From positions 1-58,902 of the IMG/VR virus record IMGVR_UViG_3300020200_000033: 58,902 nucleotides of DNA; one strand, written 5' to 3'. This document shows positions 9,580 to 58,902 of the stretch, one piece after another. The DNA is from a virus (Duplodnaviria; Caudoviricetes). The notes under the pieces are model-generated. The model ran no database searches, had not been told where the DNA came from, and saw nothing but the letters and a program-made list of their open reading frames with translations. The first letter of the stretch is position 1, and the number at the start of each line of letters is the position of its first letter. The position numbers were made by a program, and so were the translations under genes.

Positions 9580-10000
9580 AGTTATTACAAATAAGTTTTA
9601 TCAATATGCAAATCATTTTGTCAAAGTAAAAAAAATTAGCAAAACATCAAACAAAATTTTACTTTTAAATCTTCACGATGACTCTTCAATTGAAATTCCA
9701 ATCAAATCTTCAGATTTGTTGCTGAAACGCATTTATACGGTGGGAGAAGTTGCTAAGATTGTTGACCGACAGCCGAACACGCTGAGAAAGTATGAAAAGA
9801 AAAATCTTATTCCATCGCCAAAGAAGTTTGGAGATGATTATAAGGGTTACAGAAACTGGAGATATTACGAGGAAGCCGATGTGTACGGTATTGTTGAATT
9901 TTTTGGCAGTAGAGTACAGGGGCGACCAGTTAATAAATCTCAAGGTTTTGTTATAACAAAAATAAAATCATTAAACCAAAAAGTCAAGCTACACAAATAG
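9563..10000 (+). CDS. MerR-type HTH DNA-binding protein
   Basis: YTVGEVAKIVDRQPNTLRKYEKKNLIP..WRYY. Confidence 0.8.
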   Translation: MLFQNRVITNKFYQYANHFVKVKKISKTSNKILLLNLHDDSSIEIPIKSSDLLLKRIYTVGEVAKIVDRQPNTLRKYEKKNLIPSPKKFGDDYKGYRNWRYYEEADVYGIVEFFGSRVQGRPVNKSQGFVITKIKSLNQKVKLHK

Positions 10001-10007
10001 GAGATAT

Positions 10008-10214
10008 ATGAAAGACATTAATGGAACTGAAATCTGGGCCTCAATTGGAATTACCAAGAATCTTGGCAACTACGAGTCCCTCAGGCTAGACGCTGGGGGA
10101 AGAACCACTGCAAAATCTCTTGATGATGAAGATGCTTGGAAAAAACTTTGGGAGTCAATTGACTCACAAATTGAAGCGAAATTGCAAGAATTAGACAATG
10201 AAAAGCAGTCGTGA
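10008..10214 (+). CDS. Conserved phage hypothetical protein
   Basis: AGGAG RBS; ITKNLGNYESLRLD motif recalled from phage replication modules. Confidence 0.7.
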   Translation: MKDINGTEIWASIGITKNLGNYESLRLDAGGRTTAKSLDDEDAWKKLWESIDSQIEAKLQELDNEKQS

Positions 10215-10497
10215 TTGGCAAAAGTCTGCAGTTTGCCTAGGAGATAAAAACTCATTCTATTGGTTATCTTATAAACTAGAACATATCGAGTATGCTAAAA
10301 AAGGCTGCTCGGTGTGTACAGTTAAAGCAGAATGCCTAAATAATGCAATAAGCCAAGAAGTATATGTGGGTGTAAATGCTGGTATATCGGAATGGGATTT
10401 TTTAAATAAAACATGGAAGCGGGTGACAAATGCAAAGCGCTCTAACTGGTCAAGAAGTTCTTCAACACTTCATAAGTTGTTGCAAAAAAAGAAGTAA
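10198..10497 (+). CDS. whiB: WhiB-family transcription factor (divergent)
   Basis: WQKSAVC..AKKGCSVCTVKAECL..GVNAG. Confidence 0.7.
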   Translation: MKSSRDWQKSAVCLGDKNSFYWLSYKLEHIEYAKKGCSVCTVKAECLNNAISQEVYVGVNAGISEWDFLNKTWKRVTNAKRSNWSRSSSTLHKLLQKKK

Positions 10498-31754: not shown

Positions 31755-31828
31755 GCTGCCATAGCTCAATTGGATAGAGCAATAGACTTCTAATCTGTAG
31801 GTTATAGGTTCAAATCCTATTGGCAGCG
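31755..31828 (+). tRNA. tRNA-Arg (UCU)
   Basis: GCTGCCA/TGGCAGC acceptor, GCTC/GAGC D arm, loop CTTCTAA, T arm ATAGG-TTCAAAT-CCTAT. Confidence 0.93.
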
Positions 31829-31874
31829 CAAAAGATCTCCTATCAATAATGGTAGGGAAAAACAAAGGAAAAAT

Positions 31875-41443: not shown

Positions 41444-41944
41444 ATGGGATATTATGTCCGAATTGACGAGCACGACTTTAAAATTGCAAAGAAAGACTTT
41501 AAAAAAGCATATGAAGCGTGTGTTGCTCTAAACGATAGAGATGATTTAAAGTCAGGTGGTGGGGGAAGTTTTACTCTGCCAAATGGTAAAGCAATGAAAT
41601 ATGGTGATCCTCGACCAAAAGGTATGAGTTATCATCCAATGAAATGGTTTAGTTGGATGGAACCTAATTATCCAGAAATTTGTAAAACACTAAACGATAT
41701 ATTGGATGCACTTGGCTTTGAAACTGATTATGATAATAAAGGCAATATTATCGGCCTTGCTTATGATAACAAAGTTGGTGATGAGACATATTTTCTCCAA
41801 GCAATTGCTCCATTTGTAAAAACGGGATCGTTTATTACTTGGGTTGGAGAAGATGATACATATTGGAAGCAGATATTTAATGGTAAAAAAATGATAACAA
41901 AGACTGGACGTGTGGTATACGAAAAAGTATTAGATGACGAATAA
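41444..41944 (+). CDS. Conserved phage hypothetical protein
   Basis: MGY..WFSWM..IAPFVKTGSFITWVGED. Confidence 0.72.
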   Translation: MGYYVRIDEHDFKIAKKDFKKAYEACVALNDRDDLKSGGGGSFTLPNGKAMKYGDPRPKGMSYHPMKWFSWMEPNYPEICKTLNDILDALGFETDYDNKGNIIGLAYDNKVGDETYFLQAIAPFVKTGSFITWVGEDDTYWKQIFNGKKMITKTGRVVYEKVLDDE

Positions 41945-41947
41945 GGT

Positions 41948-42123
41948 TTGAAATACAAGCAGACGCTCTCTAACGGCTGAAAAGAGTTTTTGTTTAATCC
42001 CAAAAACTCGTTTTTGCATATTATATAAAAGTGTAGTTGAGTGCACTTTTGCAAACAGAAGTTCTCTAGCTGCTGAAAAGGGTTTTGTGTCGGATTAACA
42101 CAAAACTCGTTCTTGTATTTCAA
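41948..42123 (+). ncRNA. Candidate structured RNA 1 (pseudo-symmetric, kissing loops)
   Basis: 12-bp closing stem, two homologous hairpin pairs with a compensatory change, complementary loops TAATCC/GGATTA; G-U pairs favour the + strand. Confidence 0.65.
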
Positions 42124-42176
42124 TAATAAGAGCTATGCGGAATAAGTGAATGCGAGACATTCGTTTCCGTATAACT

Positions 42177-42386
42177 TTTATTAGTATTATTGGTTAGAGA
42201 TAGGCTACGGTATCCCTTTCAACCTTAAGGAAATTGTGCATTATTATATGTCCCCGAATTTATGTTGTTCTGATTCGGGTATCCACTCCCCTTATGGAAA
42301 TGGCAGTATAATAATGTCAAGCTACCTTTAACCGTTGTGGTTAAGCAAACAATTTCTGCTTATCTCTAGCCAATAGTGTTAATAAA
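42177..42386 (+). ncRNA. Candidate structured RNA 2 (29-bp closing stem, multibranch)
   Basis: 42177-42205 pairs with 42358-42386 with no mismatch (5 G-U); nested internal stems. Confidence 0.65.
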
Positions 42387-42398
42387 GAAAGGAATATT

Positions 42399-42635
42399 AT
42401 GGCAAAAAGCGAATCAATGGCTCTATTAGAAATAATGGAGATTGTATCTATGCCGGGTGAAATATATTCAGATGGCGATTGTTTAGATATGATCATTAAT
42501 GTTCTAGAAGAAGCCGGCCTTCCTGTAAAGGAAGAGATGAAAAGAATGCAAGAAGAATTTAGAAAGAATCAAGAATTAAAATGGGAAAATTTGGAACGGG
42601 AAGAAATCGTCAGGAAACTACAAGGAAGTAAATAA
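42399..42635 (+). CDS. Hypothetical protein
   Basis: AAGGA RBS; YSDGDCLD. Confidence 0.68.
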   Translation: MAKSESMALLEIMEIVSMPGEIYSDGDCLDMIINVLEEAGLPVKEEMKRMQEEFRKNQELKWENLEREEIVRKLQGSK

Positions 42636-42717: not shown

Positions 42718-43134
42718 ATGACAACAATAAAAGATGAACTTGCAAATCTTAAAACAGATGAGCAAGTCTACAAATATGTAAGAGATTTTTTAATTAATCA
42801 AAATAAGAAATCGGAAAATACAAATGACGGTTGTGCTTATCGTGGAGAAGATGGTACAAAATGTGCTGTTGGTTGTCTTATCTTAGATGAATTTTATTCA
42901 GATGAATTTGAGGGTGGATTGCCAAATGAAAGGCTGGGAACAAGAGGTAAAAGAATTGTAGAAGCTATTTGCAAATCTCTTCCAAATTGGATATTCAATA
43001 TAAGTCTATTAGAGAATGTTCAAGAGATACACGACAATTATGAACCATACGCTTGGCAATACGAATTCAATCGTAGAGAAGAAAAATACGGTTGGTTTAC
43101 ATATCATTACTACAAAAATAAGGAGAATGTATGA
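42718..43134 (+). CDS. Hypothetical protein, CxY..KCAVG..IHD family (paralog 1)
   Basis: CAYRGEDGTKCAVGCLI..QEIHD. Confidence 0.75.
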   Translation: MTTIKDELANLKTDEQVYKYVRDFLINQNKKSENTNDGCAYRGEDGTKCAVGCLILDEFYSDEFEGGLPNERLGTRGKRIVEAICKSLPNWIFNISLLENVQEIHDNYEPYAWQYEFNRREEKYGWFTYHYYKNKENV

Positions 43135-43583
43135 CAGCATTTAGCCAAAATTTTCTAACGCAACTTAGCACCGATAAACAGGTGTGGCTTTGGGTTAAGG
43201 AAAGACTCACTGATCAAAAATCAAAGTCCTTTGATGAAGATGGTCATTGTGTCTATAAATCAGACACAGGATTAAAGTGTGCAGTTGGTCATCTAATAGA
43301 GCCAATTTTCTATGACGAAGAAATTGAAGGACACGCAATTTATAGCCATGAAGTTCAAAATATAATTAAAAAATCTGTTCCAAATTGGCAAATGAATGAA
43401 ATGCTCTTAAACAAACTTCAATGTATTCACGATAGTATGAGTCCATTTCATTGGGAAGAGGCTTTTGATGAACTTTGGTTTGATGAAAATGATAATTACA
43501 TTCATACCACAAGTGGATTTGCGCAATATCAGTTAACTAAGTGGAATATGGAAAAGAAAGTGGCAAGCAGTGCGACACTTTAA
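43131..43583 (+). CDS. Hypothetical protein, CxY..KCAVG..IHD family (paralog 2)
   Basis: CVYKSDTGLKCAVGHLI..LQCIHD. Confidence 0.75.
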   Translation: MTAFSQNFLTQLSTDKQVWLWVKERLTDQKSKSFDEDGHCVYKSDTGLKCAVGHLIEPIFYDEEIEGHAIYSHEVQNIIKKSVPNWQMNEMLLNKLQCIHDSMSPFHWEEAFDELWFDENDNYIHTTSGFAQYQLTKWNMEKKVASSATL

Positions 43584-51737: not shown

Positions 51738-52191
51738 GTATTGTGTCGAGTCCCGGATAAAACATTAGCTAAAACGCGATCTTTTTTTTTATTTTACAAC
51801 GGTGTAATATTACACTGTAATTTTACCGGCCATAAGGATAACCATAAAGATGAAATGTAAAATTACCAATTGGATAAAGGTTCACAACGAGCTTACCAAA
51901 TTGATTAGGATAAAGATTATTAAATTGTTGAGAGCCGGTGTAATATTACGATGGTTGTAATGTTACGGAAGCGTAACATTACACCCACGAAACATTACAT
52001 AAAGTATTCCATAAAGGTAATATTACCGCTAAGGAATAAGCACACTAAAAGTCTAAAAGAATGCTGTATTATTACCGTTGGTAATATTACGCTGGTTCGC
52101 ACAAAAAAAATCGGCCGGCGTAACTTTACGATCGTGTAAGTCAACGCCGGGGCAGTTGTGGTACGGGGCAGTTATGGTACACCGACAGAGC

Positions 52192-52264
52192 AAAAAAAAA
52201 TCGCCTAGCGATTGCGTAGTACAAGCGTGGTTAGTGCTTGTAAAACTACGCAACCGCTAGACGA
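52192..52264 (-). terminator. Long hairpin terminator of cassette 2
   Basis: 20-bp stem with G-U pairs on the minus strand followed by T9. Confidence 0.75.
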
Positions 52265-52363
52265 CCTGCTGTTGCCACCCAAAGGCTATGTCGGTTGCCA
52301 ACCCGACTAGTACTAAGAGCCGTAAGACGTTATCTTACAGAGATGTTAGCAATCGCTAGACGG

Positions 52364-52672
52364 TCACTTGCGTGAGCGTGAACGCAGACGCACGGTAGGG
52401 ATACCGTCGACCGTGAACTTGATGTCCACGACGACCCCCGCCTGCTTGCCTGCTGAGCGCAACTGTGCCGACACCGTAGCCTTACGGCTCTTGTCGGTCA
52501 AGTCAACACGCAACTTCTTGATTGTCAAAACTTGCCCTGGGGTAAGTTTTCCAATCATCGCAACGATGGCGGGGTCGGCTTGCGACTTCCTGCCACGGCG
52601 AGCGAAGTTGAGTTCGCTCTCGTTCACAATCTCAAACTCGTGGTCGTCAGCGTTGCCCGTGTTCTTGGACAT
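52364..52672 (-). CDS. Cassette 2: small basic RGRKS-family protein
   Basis: EFEIVNESELNFARRGRKS..KATVSAQLRSAGKQAG..GIPTV; GAAAGG RBS. Confidence 0.8.
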   Translation of the reverse strand: MSKNTGNADDHEFEIVNESELNFARRGRKSQADPAIVAMIGKLTPGQVLTIKKLRVDLTDKSRKATVSAQLRSAGKQAGVVVDIKFTVDGIPTVRLRSRSRK

Positions 52673-52921
52673 CGTTGTAACCTTTCGTGTGAGTAAGGGA
52701 ACTAACGGATAAGAACAGTAGTACCACTACTGCCCCTTGCTGTAAGTTTTGGTAGCCGTGTTCGTTACCTTACACGGCACTAGGGTTCGCTGACTGCCTA
52801 GCAATCCCACACTTGTGGTAAAGTTACCACACCATCACACCACGACCTAGCCGATGCTCGGCGGTAAAGTTACCGCCCGCCTACTAGGTTGACCGTGGTA
52901 CGGGTCAAGATGGCAAGAGCC

Positions 52922-52965
52922 ATTCTATCAGCCGATTGGCGAACCCCAACACGAACAGACGTTCG
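52922..52965 (-). promoter_or_regulatory. Cassette 2 promoter with LexA (SOS) box
   Basis: CGAACAGACGTTCG (52952-52965)-TG-TTGGGG-N16-TAGAAT. Confidence 0.72.
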
Positions 52966-53211
52966 CAAAAGAACCCATAAAGTTGACTGATTAGGTCGGG
53001 TATTAGCTGAAAGATTGGATTAGATAATGATCGTAAAGTAGCACGGCCGTAAAATTACGTTTGATTTCATAAAAGTTTTCCGGCCGTAAGATTACATTAG
53101 AATCGCGTACTCAAGTAATCTTACATGTGTGTATTGTTACAGTGGGCGTAATCTTACAGTCAGTGTAAGATTACGCCCCCCGTAATATTACCGAAAAATT
53201 AGGCGTAAGAA

Positions 53212-53243
53212 TACTCCCAGCGCCTGCCACTAGCGCTGGGAGT
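53212..53243 (-). terminator. Hairpin terminator of cassette 3
   Basis: TACTCCCAGCGC..GCGCTGGGAGTA just past the stop. Confidence 0.7.
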
Positions 53244-53263
53244 AAACTTACAGCCTTGCCAGA

Positions 53264-53551
53264 TTAGGCGAGAGTCACTTGGGGGATACCTGACGGACTC
53301 CACCCAATGCGAACCTTCTTACCTGCCTGCTTGCCTGCCTGACGGATAGTGGCACTGTGCTTTGCCTTCTCCGTTTTTGCCTTCGGGCTATTCGGGCTCA
53401 CTGCCATTGACTTTATGACTAGTGCCTTACCTTTGGTGAGGGATGAGATACCCTTCACCAATTCTGGGGATACTTGGGACTTGCGCCCACGCTTTGAGAA
53501 TTGTAGCGAGTCTTCACTCACTACCTCAAAGTCATCCTTACTCGTTGCCAT
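53264..53551 (-). CDS. Cassette 3: small basic RGRKS-family protein
   Basis: DFEVVSEDSLQFSKRGRKS..SATIRQAGKQAG..GIPQV; GAGGAG RBS. Confidence 0.8.
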   Translation of the reverse strand: MATSKDDFEVVSEDSLQFSKRGRKSQVSPELVKGISSLTKGKALVIKSMAVSPNSPKAKTEKAKHSATIRQAGKQAGKKVRIGWSPSGIPQVTLA

Positions 53552-53606
53552 TGTTGCCTTCTCCTCTGGAACCCTACTTCTTTTTCGGGCTCCGTTGTTA
53601 GATACC

Positions 53607-53635
53607 AAACTACTCCCGATACCGAACCTTTGCTA
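53607..53635 (-). promoter_or_regulatory. Cassette 3 promoter
   Basis: TAGCAA-N17-TAGTTT; near-consensus SOS box CGAACAAGTGTTTG at 53760-53773. Confidence 0.55.
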
Positions 53636-54006
53636 TTGGAGCGTCAGTCAGTACCCCCAAAAACCCCAATAAAAACAAGGGTTTTTGAGAGTGTGCCAAA
53701 AGTCACACCGAATTGGTTGTGTAGTTTTAGGCAAGTTGGAAAACCTACGCAGTCAATGGCGAACAAGTGTTTGCCACCATAAAGTAGCATTGTCGTAAAA
53801 TTACTTAGGTATTGGTTTCATAAAGTTTCCCGGCTGTAAAGTTACATAAACATACTCAATTTTCCCTGTATGATCGTAATGTTACTGAGGGCGTAACTTT
53901 ACGAACTCGTAAAGTTACGCCCGCGTAATATTACTTGATGACAGGCTGTAAAATTACGCCGGGGCTGGTTGCCCAACTTTGACGTAACTTTACTAGGCGA
54001 GTAACT

Positions 54007-54438
54007 TTACTCGGCTGTAACTTCTACTTCTGCCAAGCCCTTGATATATTGGTCGCACATCACCCAAAGAGTGTGCGTATTGTTACACTCATCACAGTCG
54101 CAACCCTGAGCGTACTTCTCAAACAGACTATGCCAAGTGTTCAGCATATCCGCAAACATCATCAGGTAAGAATACTCACGTGTCAGATTAGTACCGCCTT
54201 CGTTGGCGTGGTTCGTTGCGAATGTTAGCAATCCACGACGGTAGAAGTCTGCCCGTACCCGCTTGTCGTGTTCGTCAGGTTGGATATTCCAGATACCTAG
54301 GCGTAAACTTACGTGCCTAGCGTACTCACCTACTTCACGTCCGCACTCACGCACGGCTAGACGGAACTCCGTCTGTGTAAGCGGTCGGATGAAGTACGGT
54401 TCGTCGGGGTTCGGGCTGATTGGGTTGTCGTTGTTCAC
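54007..54438 (-). CDS. Cassette 4: helical protein with CDCDEC motif
   Basis: AAGGA RBS, own promoter, stop codon inside a GTAA box. Confidence 0.75.
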   Translation of the reverse strand: MNNDNPISPNPDEPYFIRPLTQTEFRLAVRECGREVGEYARHVSLRLGIWNIQPDEHDKRVRADFYRRGLLTFATNHANEGGTNLTREYSYLMMFADMLNTWHSLFEKYAQGCDCDECNNTHTLWVMCDQYIKGLAEVEVTAE

Positions 54439-54488
54439 TTGTGTATCCTTACGTGAGCCATATCATCGGCGGGGTTGCCGACGGGTTC

Positions 54489-54535
54489 AGTCTACCACCC
54501 CCCCGGACGCGTTCCAACAGTCCCAAGAATGGTAC
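54489..54535 (-). promoter_or_regulatory. Cassette 4 promoter with RTMCCA-N4-TGGKAY operator
   Basis: GTACCATTCTTGGGAC-TG-TTGGAA-N17-TAGACT. Confidence 0.75.
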
Positions 54536-54735
54536 TTTGTATTATTACATTAGATCATCTACCATAAAGATTTGGCCATTGTAATGTTACAATTGTGTAC
54601 TCCATAATGTTTATAAATGCGTAATATTACTACGGGCGTAAGATTTCAAAACCCCCAAATCTTACGCCCGCGTAATATTACAGTGCATAGAATGTAAAGT
54701 TACACCGGGGACTAAGGATTAGTTTTGGTGTAACT

Positions 54736-55161
54736 TTACTGCGCTGTAATGATTTCAGCGCTTGCGAGTAACTTTACAAAGAACTTTATGGCTTCGCCGT
54801 GAACCATAACGGTAGAACAAACATCACAATCACAGTTTTCTGTATTGTTACACGTCTGTTCAATTTCTTGCATTATCGCAACATTGTCTAGGAAGTTTGC
54901 TAGCACTTCAAGCGTCAATGGTGATTGCGCTGGAATGTTACTGAGTTGCCCGTCAAGTTGTATTCTTACACGACTTATCTTGTGCCCTAAGTCAATGTTG
55001 GCTTCAACCTGAGCGGTAAACTTACGGGTAAGTTCTTCACTCGGTGGTGTCTCGTCTTCGTCAAGTCTGAGTAAGACTACCTCGCAGTAGGTATTGAATG
55101 AACGACCTAGCGCTTGCCATAGCGCTACCCATTCATCACTCGTCATTCGTTCCACTCTCAT
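54736..55161 (-). CDS. Cassette 5: helical protein with CDCDVC motif (likely paralog of cassette 4)
   Basis: MTSDEWVALW..; leader identical to cassette 6. Confidence 0.75.
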   Translation of the reverse strand: MRVERMTSDEWVALWQALGRSFNTYCEVVLLRLDEDETPPSEELTRKFTAQVEANIDLGHKISRVRIQLDGQLSNIPAQSPLTLEVLANFLDNVAIMQEIEQTCNNTENCDCDVCSTVMVHGEAIKFFVKLLASAEIITAQ

Positions 55162-55210
55162 TGGTGTAATCTTTCTGTGAGTATTTCATCGACCCTTTGC
55201 CGATACGTTC

Positions 55211-55257
55211 ATCATAGCAGCCCTAGAAATGGCTTCCAACCATACCAAGAATGGTAC
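55211..55257 (-). promoter_or_regulatory. Cassette 5 promoter with the same operator
   Basis: GTACCATTCTTGGTAT-GG-TTGGAA-N17-TATGAT. Confidence 0.75.
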
Positions 55258-55426
55258 TTTGTATTGTTACGCGATCACCTGATTACATTATCCACCATAA
55301 AGGATTGGCCATTGTAATGTTACAATTGCGCATTCCATAATGTTTATAAGTGTGTAATGTTACTGCGGGTGTAAGGATTGAACCCCCCCAATCCTTACAC
55401 CCGCGTAATATTACCTGGATCAATTT

Positions 55427-55472
55427 GTAAAATTACGCCGGGGCTAGTTTCCTAGCCCTGACGTAACTTTAC
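55427..55472 (-). terminator. Hairpin built from two GTAA boxes after the cassette 6 stop
   Basis: 21-bp stem, GAAA tetraloop on the minus strand; homologues at 53948, 54694, 56985. Confidence 0.6.
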
Positions 55473-55484
55473 TGCGCCGTAAGT

Positions 55485-55856
55485 CTACGAGTTGGCAAGG
55501 CGGGCAATTGCGTCTTTGGCGAGCAAGTACCCTTCTTTCAATTCTTCCGTAGGTGTCAGATTACGGGTTAGGTAAGAGTAGTGCCACTCCACGATGTCTA
55601 GCATCTTGGCGAGATACTCAAACGAGTCTGCCGACCTTGCTGTAACACTACCAGACTCTAACGCTTCCGCAATTTCTACTCCCTGTGTTGCCATCTGTGT
55701 ACCATCAATGGCATCACACAACAATTGCTCAACATTGTCTTTAGTTACGGGGACGTCATTTTCGACGGTCAACGCAACTCTAATTGAGAATTCGGCAACG
55801 AGAAAGCAAGCGAAGCGCATCACCGTTAGCCATTCTTCCTTATTCATTTCTTCCAT
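55485..55856 (-). CDS. Cassette 6: helical protein (likely paralog of cassettes 4-5)
   Basis: MNKEEWLTVM..; leader TACTCACAGAAAGATTACACCAATG shared with cassette 5. Confidence 0.75.
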   Translation of the reverse strand: MEEMNKEEWLTVMRFACFLVAEFSIRVALTVENDVPVTKDNVEQLLCDAIDGTQMATQGVEIAEALESGSVTARSADSFEYLAKMLDIVEWHYSYLTRNLTPTEELKEGYLLAKDAIARLANS

Positions 55857-55905
55857 TGGTGTAATCTTTCTGTGAGTAGTTGTCCTGCCTATTGGCATTA
55901 CCCAT

Positions 55906-55952
55906 AGTCTACCACGCCCGGTAATCGCTTCCAACTATCCCATAAATGGTAT
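55906..55952 (-). promoter_or_regulatory. Cassette 6 promoter with the same operator
   Basis: ATACCATTTATGGGAT-AG-TTGGAA-N17-TAGACT. Confidence 0.75.
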
Positions 55953-56204
55953 TTTGTATTATTACGTTGAGTCAAAAGTAATATTACGTTTACATAAAGA
56001 CACTAAATTTGTAAAGTATCTTGCCTGTAATCTTACGGGTGTGGCGCGGGGGGTTTAGGCGCGCCACACCCGCCCGTAATGTTACCCATAAAGAAGTAAA
56101 TCCACTAAAATTACACAGCCGTAATACATAGCCCGCTTGGTAATATTACATAACATCAAAGCTATGCGCTAACTATTGTTAGCGGGCCGATAACAAAAGT
56201 ATCT

Positions 56205-56251
56205 GTACCATTTTTGGGATAGTTGTGGGTAAGGTTTTGGGCTGGTAGGCT
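56205..56251 (+). promoter_or_regulatory. Cassette 7 promoter with the same operator
   Basis: GTACCATTTTTGGGAT-AG-TTGTGG-N17-TAGGCT. Confidence 0.72.
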
Positions 56252-56300
56252 ATGGGCAACGGATTACGAAGGGTAGTCCCCAAACAAAGGATAAAACAAA

Positions 56301-56741
56301 GTGAAAAAAAAGAAGGTAACAAAGGCAACAACGGCAAAGGCAAAGGCATTTGCCAAAAAACTTAGTACCAAAATTGGTACTGCCAACAAGGTACTAGCAA
56401 AAATCCCAGCCAAACCCATTTACGATAGCGAGTATCTAAACCTTGCTATTGGCAAGGCACTAAATGGAATTGCTATGCCAGCAGACAAAAATGCTCGTGA
56501 GTGGTGCGCCGATAACGGTGTCGTTGTGGATGTACGCAAAATGGTACACGAAAACAAAGAAGGCAAAGTGTCGTGCTTGCGACCCGAAAACACGGTACGC
56601 CAGCGTTTAGAGACACTTAGCAGGGTAGATAGTCGGATAGCAAAAGTGGCGTACTGTCGCAAATTGGTAAATGGTACTAGTGACGCTTGCGACCCAACAA
56701 ACAACGATGCTTACCTAGTTTTCATTTACCTAACTAAGTAA
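56301..56741 (+). CDS. Cassette 7: basic RPENTVR-family protein
   Basis: AREWC..VH.N..VS..RPENTVRQR; AAGGA RBS. Confidence 0.8.
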   Translation: MKKKKVTKATTAKAKAFAKKLSTKIGTANKVLAKIPAKPIYDSEYLNLAIGKALNGIAMPADKNAREWCADNGVVVDVRKMVHENKEGKVSCLRPENTVRQRLETLSRVDSRIAKVAYCRKLVNGTSDACDPTNNDAYLVFIYLTK

Positions 56742-56755
56742 GTAGTACCAAAAAA

Positions 56756-56787
56756 GACACGGGGCAGAAATGCCCCGTGTTTTTTTT
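56756..56787 (+). terminator. Intrinsic (possibly bidirectional) terminator
   Basis: ACACGGGGCA-GAAA-TGCCCCGTGT followed by a T run; A run upstream. Confidence 0.9.
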
Positions 56788-57038
56788 GTATCCTATGATG
56801 TCCCATAAAGGGTACGGCCTTATAAAATTACATTATGTACCACAAATGGTACATAGGTGTAATATTACAAACTCATACTAAAAAAAATAAGAATAGGAAC
56901 CATTCTCAAACGGGTGTGTCAGAAACGCTGGCGCTGTCTGCTCCACCCGCGTAAGATTACCGTGTAATATTACCTATATGGCTTGTAAAGTTACGCCGGG
57001 GCGGGGGGTTCCCCAGCGTAACTTTACTGCTGTGTTAT

Positions 57039-57347
57039 TTAACTGTTGCCCCAATCGCAACCGTTATCGTCATCGGCATCGCAAGTCATCCAGACATACC
57101 CGCATTCGGTAGTCTCATCTTCGGTAAAGTGACAGAACTTGCAGGGTAGCATCCCCTCATCGTAATGGTAGTGCTTGCGATACCAAGCACGGATTCCGAC
57201 TAGCGATGCCATACGCTGACGGTCAGTATCGGTGGATTGCTCTATCCATTCCCACTCTTCGGGTGTAAACTTACTTGCGTCAATGATGACCAAGTTATCG
57301 GCAGAACCATAAGTCCCGTCAGTTGTGAAGTAATATTTCCTAGTCAC
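57039..57347 (-). CDS. Cassette 8: acidic Cys-rich hypothetical protein
   Basis: YFTTDGTYGSADNLVIIDAS..; GAAAGG RBS. Confidence 0.75.
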   Translation of the reverse strand: MTRKYYFTTDGTYGSADNLVIIDASKFTPEEWEWIEQSTDTDRQRMASLVGIRAWYRKHYHYDEGMLPCKFCHFTEDETTECGYVWMTCDADDDNGCDWGNS

Positions 57348-57397
57348 GTTGTAAAGTTACCTTTCTCGTGGTTGAGTGTACCTATTGGCACGCCATT

Positions 57398-57442
57398 AGT
57401 CTATCGGATATCCAATAGCCTTGCAACACGAACAGATGTTCG
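57398..57442 (-). promoter_or_regulatory. Cassette 8 promoter with LexA (SOS) box
   Basis: CGAACAGATGTTCG (57429-57442)-TG-TTGCAA-N17-TAGACT. Confidence 0.8.
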
Positions 57443-57744
57443 CTTTATGGCTGGTTTATGGGAATGATTCTCATAAAGGATTATGCTGTGTAAACTTACA
57501 TTAAAGAAATGAGGCTTATGTAATATTACGCCAGTCAAAAGTATTCTATTAGTATCTCATAAAGAAATAAACACACTAAACTTACCCGATCGTAACCTTA
57601 TAACCCGCTTGGTAACATTACACAGAGCGGGACATAAATGGTACGGGACAAGAATGGTACACTTCACCGATCGCGCCTAGTCGACGTGGCAGAAAGAGAA
57701 AGAACCCCGTACCATTCTCGGTACGGAGTTCGGCTGACTATCGG

Positions 57745-57783
57745 TAGAAACAGAAAGAGCCCGACTCTTGCGAGTCGGGCTCT
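57745..57783 (-). terminator. Intrinsic terminator of cassette 9
   Basis: AGAGCCCGACTC-GCAA-GAGTCGGGCTCT-TTCTGTTTCT. Confidence 0.82.
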
Positions 57784-57801
57784 CTCTTGCGAGAGTGTCT
57801 C

Positions 57802-58278
57802 TCAGTTCTTGCGAACGATAAACACTTTCTTCGCATCAGCATTCTTCGAGTCGGTGGCAGTCGGTGAACCGTTCTGAACGAATCGGACATACGCCAGAGT
57901 CTTCACCAGAGCGAGAGCGTTGCGCTCTTTCTGATTCAGTTTCTTCATCACTTCTTTCTCGCTCGTCAGATTCACGAATGTGAGAATGCGAGCCCTAACC
58001 GTGTTCTCTGGTCGGTTCGTGCTAACACGCTTCACATGGTTCTTGTGAACGATGGAATCCACCGATACCACGAACGCCTCATTAGCGAGACACCACGAAC
58101 GAGCGTCAGTCTCATTCTTCGGCATCACTTTCTTCGTGAAGAGTGCTTCACTCATCGCATTCAGAAGAACGAGCGACACATAGACACGCTTAGAGCGCAT
58201 CTCAGCCCGAACCTCATTCGTCTTGGTGATGACTGAAAGCATCAGTTTCACCCACTCTTTCTTACTCTTCTTACTCAC
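57802..58278 (-). CDS. Cassette 9: basic RPENTVR-family protein (paralog of cassette 7)
   Basis: ARSWC..VHKN..VS..RPENTVRAR; GAGGA RBS. Confidence 0.8.
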   Translation of the reverse strand: MSKKSKKEWVKLMLSVITKTNEVRAEMRSKRVYVSLVLLNAMSEALFTKKVMPKNETDARSWCLANEAFVVSVDSIVHKNHVKRVSTNRPENTVRARILTFVNLTSEKEVMKKLNQKERNALALVKTLAYVRFVQNGSPTATDSKNADAKKVFIVRKN

Positions 58279-58326
58279 TTCGTTATCCTCTCTCTTAGGG
58301 CTCGCCCGTTGCGAACCGTTGAGAGC

Positions 58327-58371
58327 ATTCTAGCCGACCCAGAAGAGCCTTGCTACACGAACGAATGTTCG
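58327..58371 (-). promoter_or_regulatory. Cassette 9 promoter with LexA (SOS) box
   Basis: CGAACGAATGTTCG (58358-58371)-TG-TAGCAA-N17-TAGAAT. Confidence 0.78.
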
Positions 58372-58594
58372 TATGATTACGCATAACTATACGAGCTGAC
58401 GCATAATAATACACTACGCATAAACATACACCGTAATGTATGATTACGCGATCTACCATAAACGGTACATCGGTGTAAGATTACGAATGCGTATTCCATT
58501 TCTGGTATGTACCATTTATGTCCCAACGGGTGCGTCTGCTACGTGAAACTGGGCAGCTCCACCCGCGGTATTATTACATAAAGGTGGATCGGTT

Positions 58595-58750
58595 GTAAAA
58601 TTACATGTTAAAAATGAGACACTCAAGGACACTACAAGGTTTGGTGTTGTAATCTTACATCCATTAAAAATGAGACACTCAAGGACATTATAAGGTTTGG
58701 TGCTGTAATATTACACATACTAAAAATGAGACCATAAACTGTAATGTTAC
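58595..58750. repeat. About 2.6 tandem 54-56-bp repeats, each starting with a GTAA box
   Basis: GTAANNTTAC..TAAAAATGAGACACTCAAGGACAYTAYAAGGTTTGGTGYT. Confidence 0.88.
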
Positions 58751-58828
58751 GCTGGGCGTGTTGGTCGTCAGACTGCGGGCTTGGTGTTGGTCGTCAGATT
58801 GCCCGCTCGACTGAACCCCATAACGCCA

Positions 58829-58864
58829 GAACCCCCGCCTACCCTTGCGGGCAAGCGGGGGTTC
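58829..58864 (-). terminator. Hairpin, probable terminator of a further cassette beyond the window
   Basis: GAACCCCCGC..GCGGGGGTTC with a GCAA loop on the minus strand. Confidence 0.5.
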
Positions 58865-58902
58865 GGGGGGGGGTTGTAGCGGGTGCTACTTGGTGCGGAA
58901 CA

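Follow-up and report, generated by a model that had tools for sequence, protein, structure and literature searches.

A candidate structured RNA built from a tandem-duplicated unit in an intergenic gap of freshwater phages

The DNA analysed here, termed the window, is a virus record of 58,902 bases from IMG/VR (completeness estimate 56%). This report concerns ‘domain 1’, a 176-nt element (41948-42123) inside a 454-nt gap between open reading frames (ORFs) at 41945-42398, which has the features of a structured RNA. The window is AT-rich (G+C about 0.32-0.40 up to 51 kb), its long ORFs lie almost exclusively on the + strand, and its genes include a pol III alpha-like DNA polymerase, a DnaB-like helicase, a large terminase and tail proteins. 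IMG/VR contains 174 relatives of the polymerase, and complete relatives are 105-109 kb in length. The metagenome runs in which the stretch occurs are of lake water. Two ORFs flank the gap:

41444-41944, upstream of the gap: ORF of 166 aa, phrog_38862, function not known
42399-42635, downstream of the gap: ORF of 78 aa, belonging to no family

An initial annotation of this locus had claimed that it holds no + strand ORF, and indeed none of at least 30 aa occurs in 41945-42235. Coding on the - strand across domain 1 was considered and rejected: the - strand ORF at 41761-42123 is not conserved in relatives, with a change of frame in L176 and stops in every frame in L119. What the locus does contain is a pair of homologous units nested within a common closing stem, the parts of which are as follows:

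41948-41959, + strand: 5′ arm of the outer closing stem (P1), complementary to 42112-42123 at 12/12 positions
41960-41979, + strand: hairpin A of unit 1, with a base of 3 bp (CAG/CUG), an A.G mismatch, a weak upper stem and the loop UCUCUAA
41980-42012, + strand: hairpin B of unit 1 (B1), with a 9-bp stem, an 8-nt loop (UUUAAUCC) and the base extension AAA.G/C.GUU
42013-42055, + strand: central arm, a 6-bp helix (42013-18/42050-55) capped by an 8-bp hairpin (42028-35/42042-49)
42056-42075, + strand: hairpin A of unit 2 (A2), with the loop UCUCUA
42076-42111, + strand: hairpin B of unit 2 (B2), with an 11-bp stem that includes one G.U pair and the loop CGGAUUA
42112-42123, + strand: 3′ arm of P1, partner of 41948-41959

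This anatomy had in large part been predicted, and it stood up to analysis, with the elements at the coordinates originally given. The closing stem is 100% complementary over 12 nt, and ViennaRNA folds both helices of the central arm. The two units are direct repeats (35 nt, 83%, and 17 nt, 88%) lying 96-99 nt apart, and the unit pattern finds exactly two matches in the window even when up to three mismatches are allowed, against 0.00 expected from 100 shuffles. The A.G mismatch in the base extension of B1 is conserved, and in hairpin A the 3-bp base and its A.G mismatch do not vary. On the + strand a 191-nt stretch folds at -53.8 kcal/mol (z -4.83), which 0/200 shuffles equal; taken alone, B1 folds at -9.3 kcal/mol (z -5.8) and B2 at -12.7 kcal/mol (z -4.8). 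The whole 454-nt gap (z -8.08, 0/100 shuffles as good) comprises three stacked domains, of which domain 1 is the first.

Domain 1 belongs to no Rfam family, as checked in two ways: no match reached the gathering score over the window, and none was credible at E up to 10 over 41850-42450. The best of nine sub-threshold matches, to VR-RNA, scored 24.8 bits compared with a gathering score of 100 and was set aside as AT-rich hairpin noise. Origins as a retron non-coding RNA (ncRNA), a self-cleaving ribozyme or a tRNA-like element found no support in Rfam, and there was no reverse transcriptase among the neighbouring ORFs scanned. No printed description of domain 1 was found in the literature, a weak negative for an element that has no name to search by.

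The remaining two domains of the gap lie downstream of domain 1:

42124-42183, + strand: domain 2, a long hairpin followed by a U-rich tail
about 42185-42386 (~200 nt), + strand: domain 3, directly upstream of the 78-aa ORF

Syntenic relatives were located through a 540-aa protein encoded 2 kb upstream; nhmmer then found domain 3 only, and the domain 3 motif retrieved four IMG/VR and 11 metagenome loci, making, with the window, 16 syntenic loci. The gap takes four forms among them:

Form I, gene running directly to domain 3 with nothing between: L114, L174, L178
Form II, terminator-like hairpin and tRNA-Arg(UCU): L115, L116, L175, L177
Form III, hairpin, tRNA-Arg and one unit with its own closing stem of 11-12 bp: L119, L172, L180, L181
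Form IV, two nested units and then a hairpin: window, L173, L182, L179, L176

The unit is present in 9/16 loci, doubled in five (four distinct sequences) and single in four (three distinct sequences), and is always found just upstream of domain 3; in the window the 166-aa ORF, with its stop codon, precedes it and a terminator-like hairpin follows. A covariance model of the unit, R1 (closing stem, CAG-A...UCUA...G-CUG, (A/U)AAAG-hairpin-CGUU), gave 14 matches, eight of them distinct, at 37-77 bits from nine sources, including 7/11 metagenome loci. Homologues scored 65-77 bits and the degraded unit 2 of L176 37 bits; the 75-77 bits of the window units are not independent, these having been among the sequences from which R1 was built. 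Over 46 phage records R1 recovered only the window and G034 (the contig of L119, complete at 105 kb), with one locus in each, and the other 44 records, from related phages, had no unit match with E below 0.04. Matches of 13-20 bits in G007, G011, G023 and G045 were rejected as chance; genomic context was checked for that in G011 alone, which falls inside a 216-aa ORF.

Wider searches added little to this family. A loose unit pattern found 29 stretches in IMG/VR, 28 of which were searched with R1, and only L142, on the G034 contig, was genuine; L002 was left out of that search as the single IMG/VR match to the strict unit pattern, lying in a coding frame and already judged to be chance. The two-unit pattern had 0 matches in IMG/VR. 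Representative prokaryote genomes yielded two pattern matches (23.3 and 19.9 bits), both rejected and both without hairpin B. A blastn search with 41900-42420 found no match in 50,697 phage records, the gap searched as DNA against 29 related records (L004 excluded) reached at best E 0.054 with only chance matches of 14-22 nt, and a pattern search of viral contigs with the 166-aa protein gave no relatives. Judged by these searches, the unit family is real but tiny and the module dispensable, and domain 1 is a real, undescribed and clade-restricted element apparently confined to freshwater phages of roughly 105 kb. The earlier proposal of an undescribed ncRNA is upheld to the extent that domain 1 is non-coding, sits on the + strand with the genes, matches nothing in Rfam and keeps its architecture in homologues, but not in the sense of a free-standing or widespread RNA.

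Comparison of the forms provides evidence that pairing has been maintained. P1 and B1 are each invariant in 4/4 distinct two-unit sequences, and the single-unit loci have a different yet fully complementary closing stem of 11-12 bp; counted from the inner end, with the P1 arms of forms III and IV aligned by hand, 6/11 positions differ on both arms and pairing is intact. Hairpin B has two pairs in which both bases differ from one of these forms to the other (GC:5/AU:3 and UA:4/GC:3). At the level of the unit, 84.0% of cells are paired compared with 77.4% in shuffles (0/500 as high), and the covariation score is 0.167 compared with 0.084 (1/500 reach it). The inner closing helix (the base of the central arm) and the outer (P1) are paralogues with two positions at which both sides differ, such that the nested pairing is all Watson-Crick where local closure of each unit would give a mismatch and a wobble; this comparison favours the nested, pseudo-symmetric topology. 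One pair of the central hairpin is U.G in the window, U-A in L173, L179 and L182, and C-G in a low-depth contig variant, and a second is G-C, or A-U in a low-depth contig variant. The central arm of L176 is shorter, through deletions of 9 nt and 1 nt, and is still a hairpin. The G.U pair of B2 becomes A-U in L179 and a closing U-A becomes U.G in the contig variant, and such exchanges between wobble and Watson-Crick pairs fit a + strand RNA. One contig variant differs in the 3′ arm of P1 (42112-42123), the comparison covering that arm alone.

Compensatory changes are found among homologues in P1, hairpin B and the central hairpin; the upper stem of hairpin A is not supported, and the loop-loop pairs do not covary. 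A compensatory C-G to A-T pair, claimed for the upper stem of hairpin A from the two units of the window, is not retained in all homologues. The three lower pairs of hairpin A are invariant in 8/8 distinct units, and what is conserved in this hairpin is its sequence, not its stem. Domain 1 differs at only 1/176 positions from L173 and at 3/176 from L179, compared with 15 and 14 differences, respectively, over the 3′-terminal 300 nt of the 166-aa gene and 29/237 in the 78-aa ORF. Its conservation is no lower than that of the adjoining coding sequence, which fits purifying selection. Compared with L176, P1 and unit 1 are 95.4% identical, the gene 92.4% and unit 2 88.4%, marking unit 2 as the less constrained half. 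Anatomy, homologues, conservation and some covariation are all matters of direct observation, and comparative support for RNA structure in domain 1 can be described as moderate.

The loops of B1 and B2 share six contiguous complementary bases, in agreement with the initial annotation. Measured against random loops matched in length and local composition, a six-base match has a probability of 0.0026 for this pair and 0.012 for any pair among five loops. The complementarity is retained in 4/4 distinct two-unit sequences but does not covary. The GGAUUA core of the B2 loop is kept while the first loop base is C, U or G; it is kept also in the contig variant, where the comparison concerns the B2 core alone. 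The loop duplex is weak (about -4.9 kcal/mol), and two hairpins of 9 and 11 bp on one junction have a geometry in which a cis loop contact would be plausible. In the single-unit form the B loop has no partner loop, and a 6-nt palindrome stands at the aligned position in 3/3 distinct sequences (chance probability 0.19 in a 16-nt loop).

The reading that we favour, with about even confidence, is that domain 1 is a lineage-specific accessory RNA module of a structured intergenic region, composed of a tandem-duplicated three-way-junction unit. A unit of ~55 nt would have been duplicated in tandem to give domain 1, each copy forming a three-way junction that joins a closing stem to a short hairpin A (invariant junction and loop bases CAGA ... 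UCUA ... GCUG-AAAG) and a longer hairpin B closed via ...CGUU. After duplication the four stem arms would have taken new partners, the two outer arms forming P1 and the two inner arms the central arm, leaving the units nested. The fold would then act as a platform from which the invariant, mostly unpaired bases of hairpin A and the junction bind a putative partner, and in the doubled form pairing between the B1 and B2 loops may lock the two halves in cis. The invariance of the hairpin A and junction bases suggests that they are the binding surface. We infer transcription and loop kissing, and likewise any binding partner and any effect on domain 3 or the 78-aa ORF; the kissing-loop, aptamer and scaffold readings of domain 1 are unproven.

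Several observations weigh against this reading. Distribution of the unit is patchy, as it is absent from 7/16 loci that have both the flanking gene and domain 3, and 11 more distant loci showed neither the unit nor any similarity downstream of their orthologues of the 166-aa gene (L113 was excluded beforehand, its protein match being weak and partial, E 7e-7). Hairpin A alone folds at only -1.7 and -2.6 kcal/mol in the two units, with 69 and 87/200 shuffles as good, and its upper-stem pairs are open in 2, 3 and 5 of the 8 distinct units. Unit 2 of L176 has uncompensated changes, with the lower stem of B2 lost and the A2 loop altered (the CAG/CUG base of A2 is intact, and some ‘unpaired’ cells are alignment artefacts), and in L179 a single U to A change disrupts a B2 pair. 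Covariation between forms III and IV amounts to very few independent events and, for P1, depends on the manual alignment; within form IV, four distinct sequences about 95% identical have 0 double-sided changes and shuffles equal them. The B1 and B2 loops show zero covariation, because their six complementary bases never vary. A recombination boundary inside domain 3, or a mosaic, could yield the same picture of identity, a mosaic being possible because domain 2 is equally similar in L173 and L179. Finally, folding is about equally good on the - strand (z -5.16), and strand must be inferred from gene orientation and G-U pairs. The + strand has three such pairs (in A2, B2 and the central hairpin) where the - strand would have one, and the wobble changes agree with this; the claim that G-U pairs mark the + strand survives on these counts, with folding energy indifferent to strand.

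Domain 1 could instead be evolutionary debris, a duplicated cassette with one loop flipped by recombination between stem arms and now drifting without a function of its own, a possibility we regard as unlikely but well short of negligible. Presence and absence differ among close relatives, placement relative to the terminator hairpin and the tRNA varies, and unit 2 of L176 has decayed. Over 6-7 bases the B2 loop reads as the reverse complement of that of B1, as an inversion would give, and the loops do not covary; a flip by recombination between stem arms after duplication would explain the complementarity equally well. Small hairpin-loop inversions of this kind are known in plastid genomes. 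Drift is, however, difficult to square with the 1 or 3/176 differences from L173 and L179 when flanking coding sequence differs by about 5%, with compensatory changes in the nested helices and the central hairpin, or with a GGAUUA core that is kept beside a first loop base that varies. Inverted repeats bound domain 1 and AATAAG is present on both flanks, but the left flank AATAAGGTT is common to the single and double forms and is hence part of the element rather than a target duplication. Of the traits of a miniature inverted-repeat transposable element (MITE), a perfect 12-bp terminal inverted repeat is present, whereas many copies and differing target-site duplications were not found, and one locus per genome gives no sign of active mobility.

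It is quite unlikely that B1 and B2 are tandem rho-independent terminators closing the operon, each with a small hairpin before it, and that their nested fold is incidental. A consensus scan flags exactly these two hairpins (two found, 0.6 expected), each stem is preceded by an A-tract and followed by a U-rich one, and in the window domain 1 directly follows a stop codon. In single-unit loci, however, the B stem has 5 bp, its loop is 16 nt and there is no U-tract, which indicates that terminator features are not the conserved part. Moreover, the U-rich tails are themselves paired arms of P1 and the central helix, with compensatory changes, a separate terminator-like domain 2 lies downstream and is common to relatives without units, and the invariant bases of hairpin A are left unexplained.

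We think it very unlikely that the unit is a self-associating RNA, in which the single form would dimerise in trans via its B-loop palindrome and the doubled form would be a fused pseudo-dimer with swapped closing stems, its loops having diverged to kiss in cis. Were this so, a quaternary RNA contact would have been made tertiary by gene duplication, and the element may be a platform or decoy working with the domain 3 RNA.

An element acting at the DNA level, whether a protein site (TCTCTA(A/G)C, in three direct copies and one inverted) or a cruciform or origin-like structure, is highly improbable. The 8-mer does stand in the hairpin A loop of each unit, the outer helix of domain 3 carries it on either strand, and the - strand folds like the + strand. 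Nevertheless, in a DNA hairpin the three G.T positions would be mispaired and the changes among relatives obey RNA rules, the copies in domain 3 covary as a helix (A-U to G-C) without the word being kept, 8-base matches are common by chance in the region, and absence from most relatives means that this is not an essential origin. Least probable of all is a trans-assembling RNA in which B-loop pairing from one molecule to the next (head to tail for doubled units, by the palindrome for single ones) would build dimers or rings in the manner of phi29 pRNA or of GOLLD and ROOL: loops complementary in 4/4 two-unit sequences and palindromic in 3/3 single-unit sequences speak for it, but the palindrome has that chance probability of 0.19, the loops do not covary, their duplex is weak, there is no match to phi29 packaging RNA (pRNA), GOLLD or ROOL, and the element is dispensable in sister phages.

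Under the favoured reading, domain 1 is an accessory to a region whose other RNAs are more widely shared. Domain 2 is likely to be an operon terminator or a 3′ stabiliser. In loci with no unit and with one unit, the orthologue of the 166-aa gene is directly followed by hairpins whose apical motif is similar. The consensus terminator scan left domain 2 unflagged. Domain 3 is present in 16/16 syntenic loci, among them:

L114, about 9924-10128: domain 3
L115, about 9966-10170: domain 3
L119, about 10061-10265: domain 3

It has a long-range closing helix, with two nested long-range helices and a conserved, one-sided internal loop of ~23 nt. RNAalifold, run on 12 of the 16 loci, gave 37 domain 3 pairs, 22 of which retain pairing via changes on both sides, and the outer helix has an additional A-U to G-C change in contigs from other lakes. 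Its presence in all loci, with compensatory changes, makes domain 3 the conserved core of the gap. It has no match in Rfam, and looks like a leader, a riboswitch-like RNA or a separate ncRNA. In the contigs from other lakes the inner part of domain 3 (42248-42309) is replaced by 66 other letters, a variable hairpin within a conserved frame.

The 8-mer TCTCTA(A/G)C occurs at 41967-41974, 42063-42070, 42193-42200 (inverted) and 42363-42370, so that the 8-mer of the hairpin A loops is the same as the 3′ strand of the domain 3 outer helix and complementary to the 5′ strand (about -12 kcal/mol). Pairing of the hairpin A loops with this helix is speculation only, since 8-nt matches are common here, with five perfect 8-nt inverted matches in 701 nt of AT-rich region; the loops did not track the A-U to G-C change of the helix, and their complementarity is lower in L176.

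A tRNA-Arg(UCU) lies inside the gap in 8/16 syntenic loci:

L115, 9878-9952: tRNA-Arg(UCU)
L116, 7722-7796: tRNA-Arg(UCU)
L119, 9897-9971: tRNA-Arg(UCU)
L172, 101-175: tRNA-Arg(UCU)
L175, 2197-2271, - strand: tRNA-Arg(UCU)
L177, 9553-9627, - strand: tRNA-Arg(UCU)
L180, 20-94: tRNA-Arg(UCU)
L181, 22-96: tRNA-Arg(UCU)

In the single-unit loci the closing stem begins about 11-14 nt 3′ of this tRNA. The window has a tRNA-Lys(UUU) and a tRNA-Arg(UCU), the latter at 31755-31829, and none in the 454-nt gap. The gap is a hot spot for exchange of small-RNA modules.

Two observations concern the window beyond the gap. Adjacent paralogous ORFs at 42718-43134 and 43131-43583 belong to phrog_17693, function not known, distant relatives of which occur, there in tandem too, in large phages of Pseudomonas, Xanthomonas and Ralstonia. 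From about 52000 to 58902, G+C rises from about 0.35 to 0.43-0.51, GC skew is near zero and most longer ORFs are on the - strand; this part may belong to another module of the genome, be an acquired island or reflect a join in the assembly.

Among known RNAs, the phi29 pRNA, whose loops the initial annotation had named for comparison, is one of the closest in form: it is phage-encoded, about 170 nt long and has a three-way junction with two mutually complementary loops. It belongs to small phi29-like phages and binds the portal in DNA packaging. The likeness of domain 1, also a three-way junction with complementary loops, is one of form only. Domain 1 has no match to Rfam pRNA, is made of two repeated units, and is internal, intergenic and dispensable; moreover, its phage has a genome of about 105 kb, a large terminase and a DNA polymerase resembling pol III alpha, and so does not belong with the phi29-like podoviruses. 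Tandem or pseudo-symmetric riboswitches (glycine, NAD+-I, guanidine-II) likewise have two homologous units with conserved unpaired bases. Domain 1 resembles such tandem aptamers in its two units in series, here followed by a terminator-like hairpin, but no riboswitch family is among its Rfam matches, it is confined to few phages, and no fixed leader position is apparent, as it lies between a stop codon and a terminator-like hairpin in the window and between a tRNA and domain 3 in single-unit loci. Purine and lysine riboswitches and the hammerhead have loop-loop contacts between parallel hairpins of one junction, known from structures and covariation, whereas in domain 1 there is only a conserved six-base complementarity.

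Position provides a further parallel. GOLLD and ROOL RNAs are often close to tRNA genes. The T4 species 1 and 2 RNAs, which are structured and whose function is not known, also lie beside phage tRNA genes, and the single-unit relatives are alike in this adjacency; the window locus has no tRNA, and the two are likened by position only. Domain 1 has in common with GOLLD and ROOL an origin in phages and lakes and, in form III, the tRNA neighbour, but those RNAs are several times larger and their Rfam models do not match it. GOLLD and ROOL are described as large ornate RNAs without known function, from phage or lake sources, that assemble via loop contacts (PMC12286853, PMC5737381).

As an object of study, domain 1 is of limited practical value, being known from a handful of lake-phage contigs with no cultured host. 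Comparative support is far stronger for domain 3, probably the better target, and the 454-nt gap is best treated as a whole. Domain 1 is nonetheless an undescribed addition to the phage-encoded structured RNAs without known function. If both the fold and the loop contact are real, it would join the few phage structured RNAs not linked to a known function and provide a small, tractable natural case in which an RNA module was duplicated, swapped its closing helices and gained an internal loop contact.

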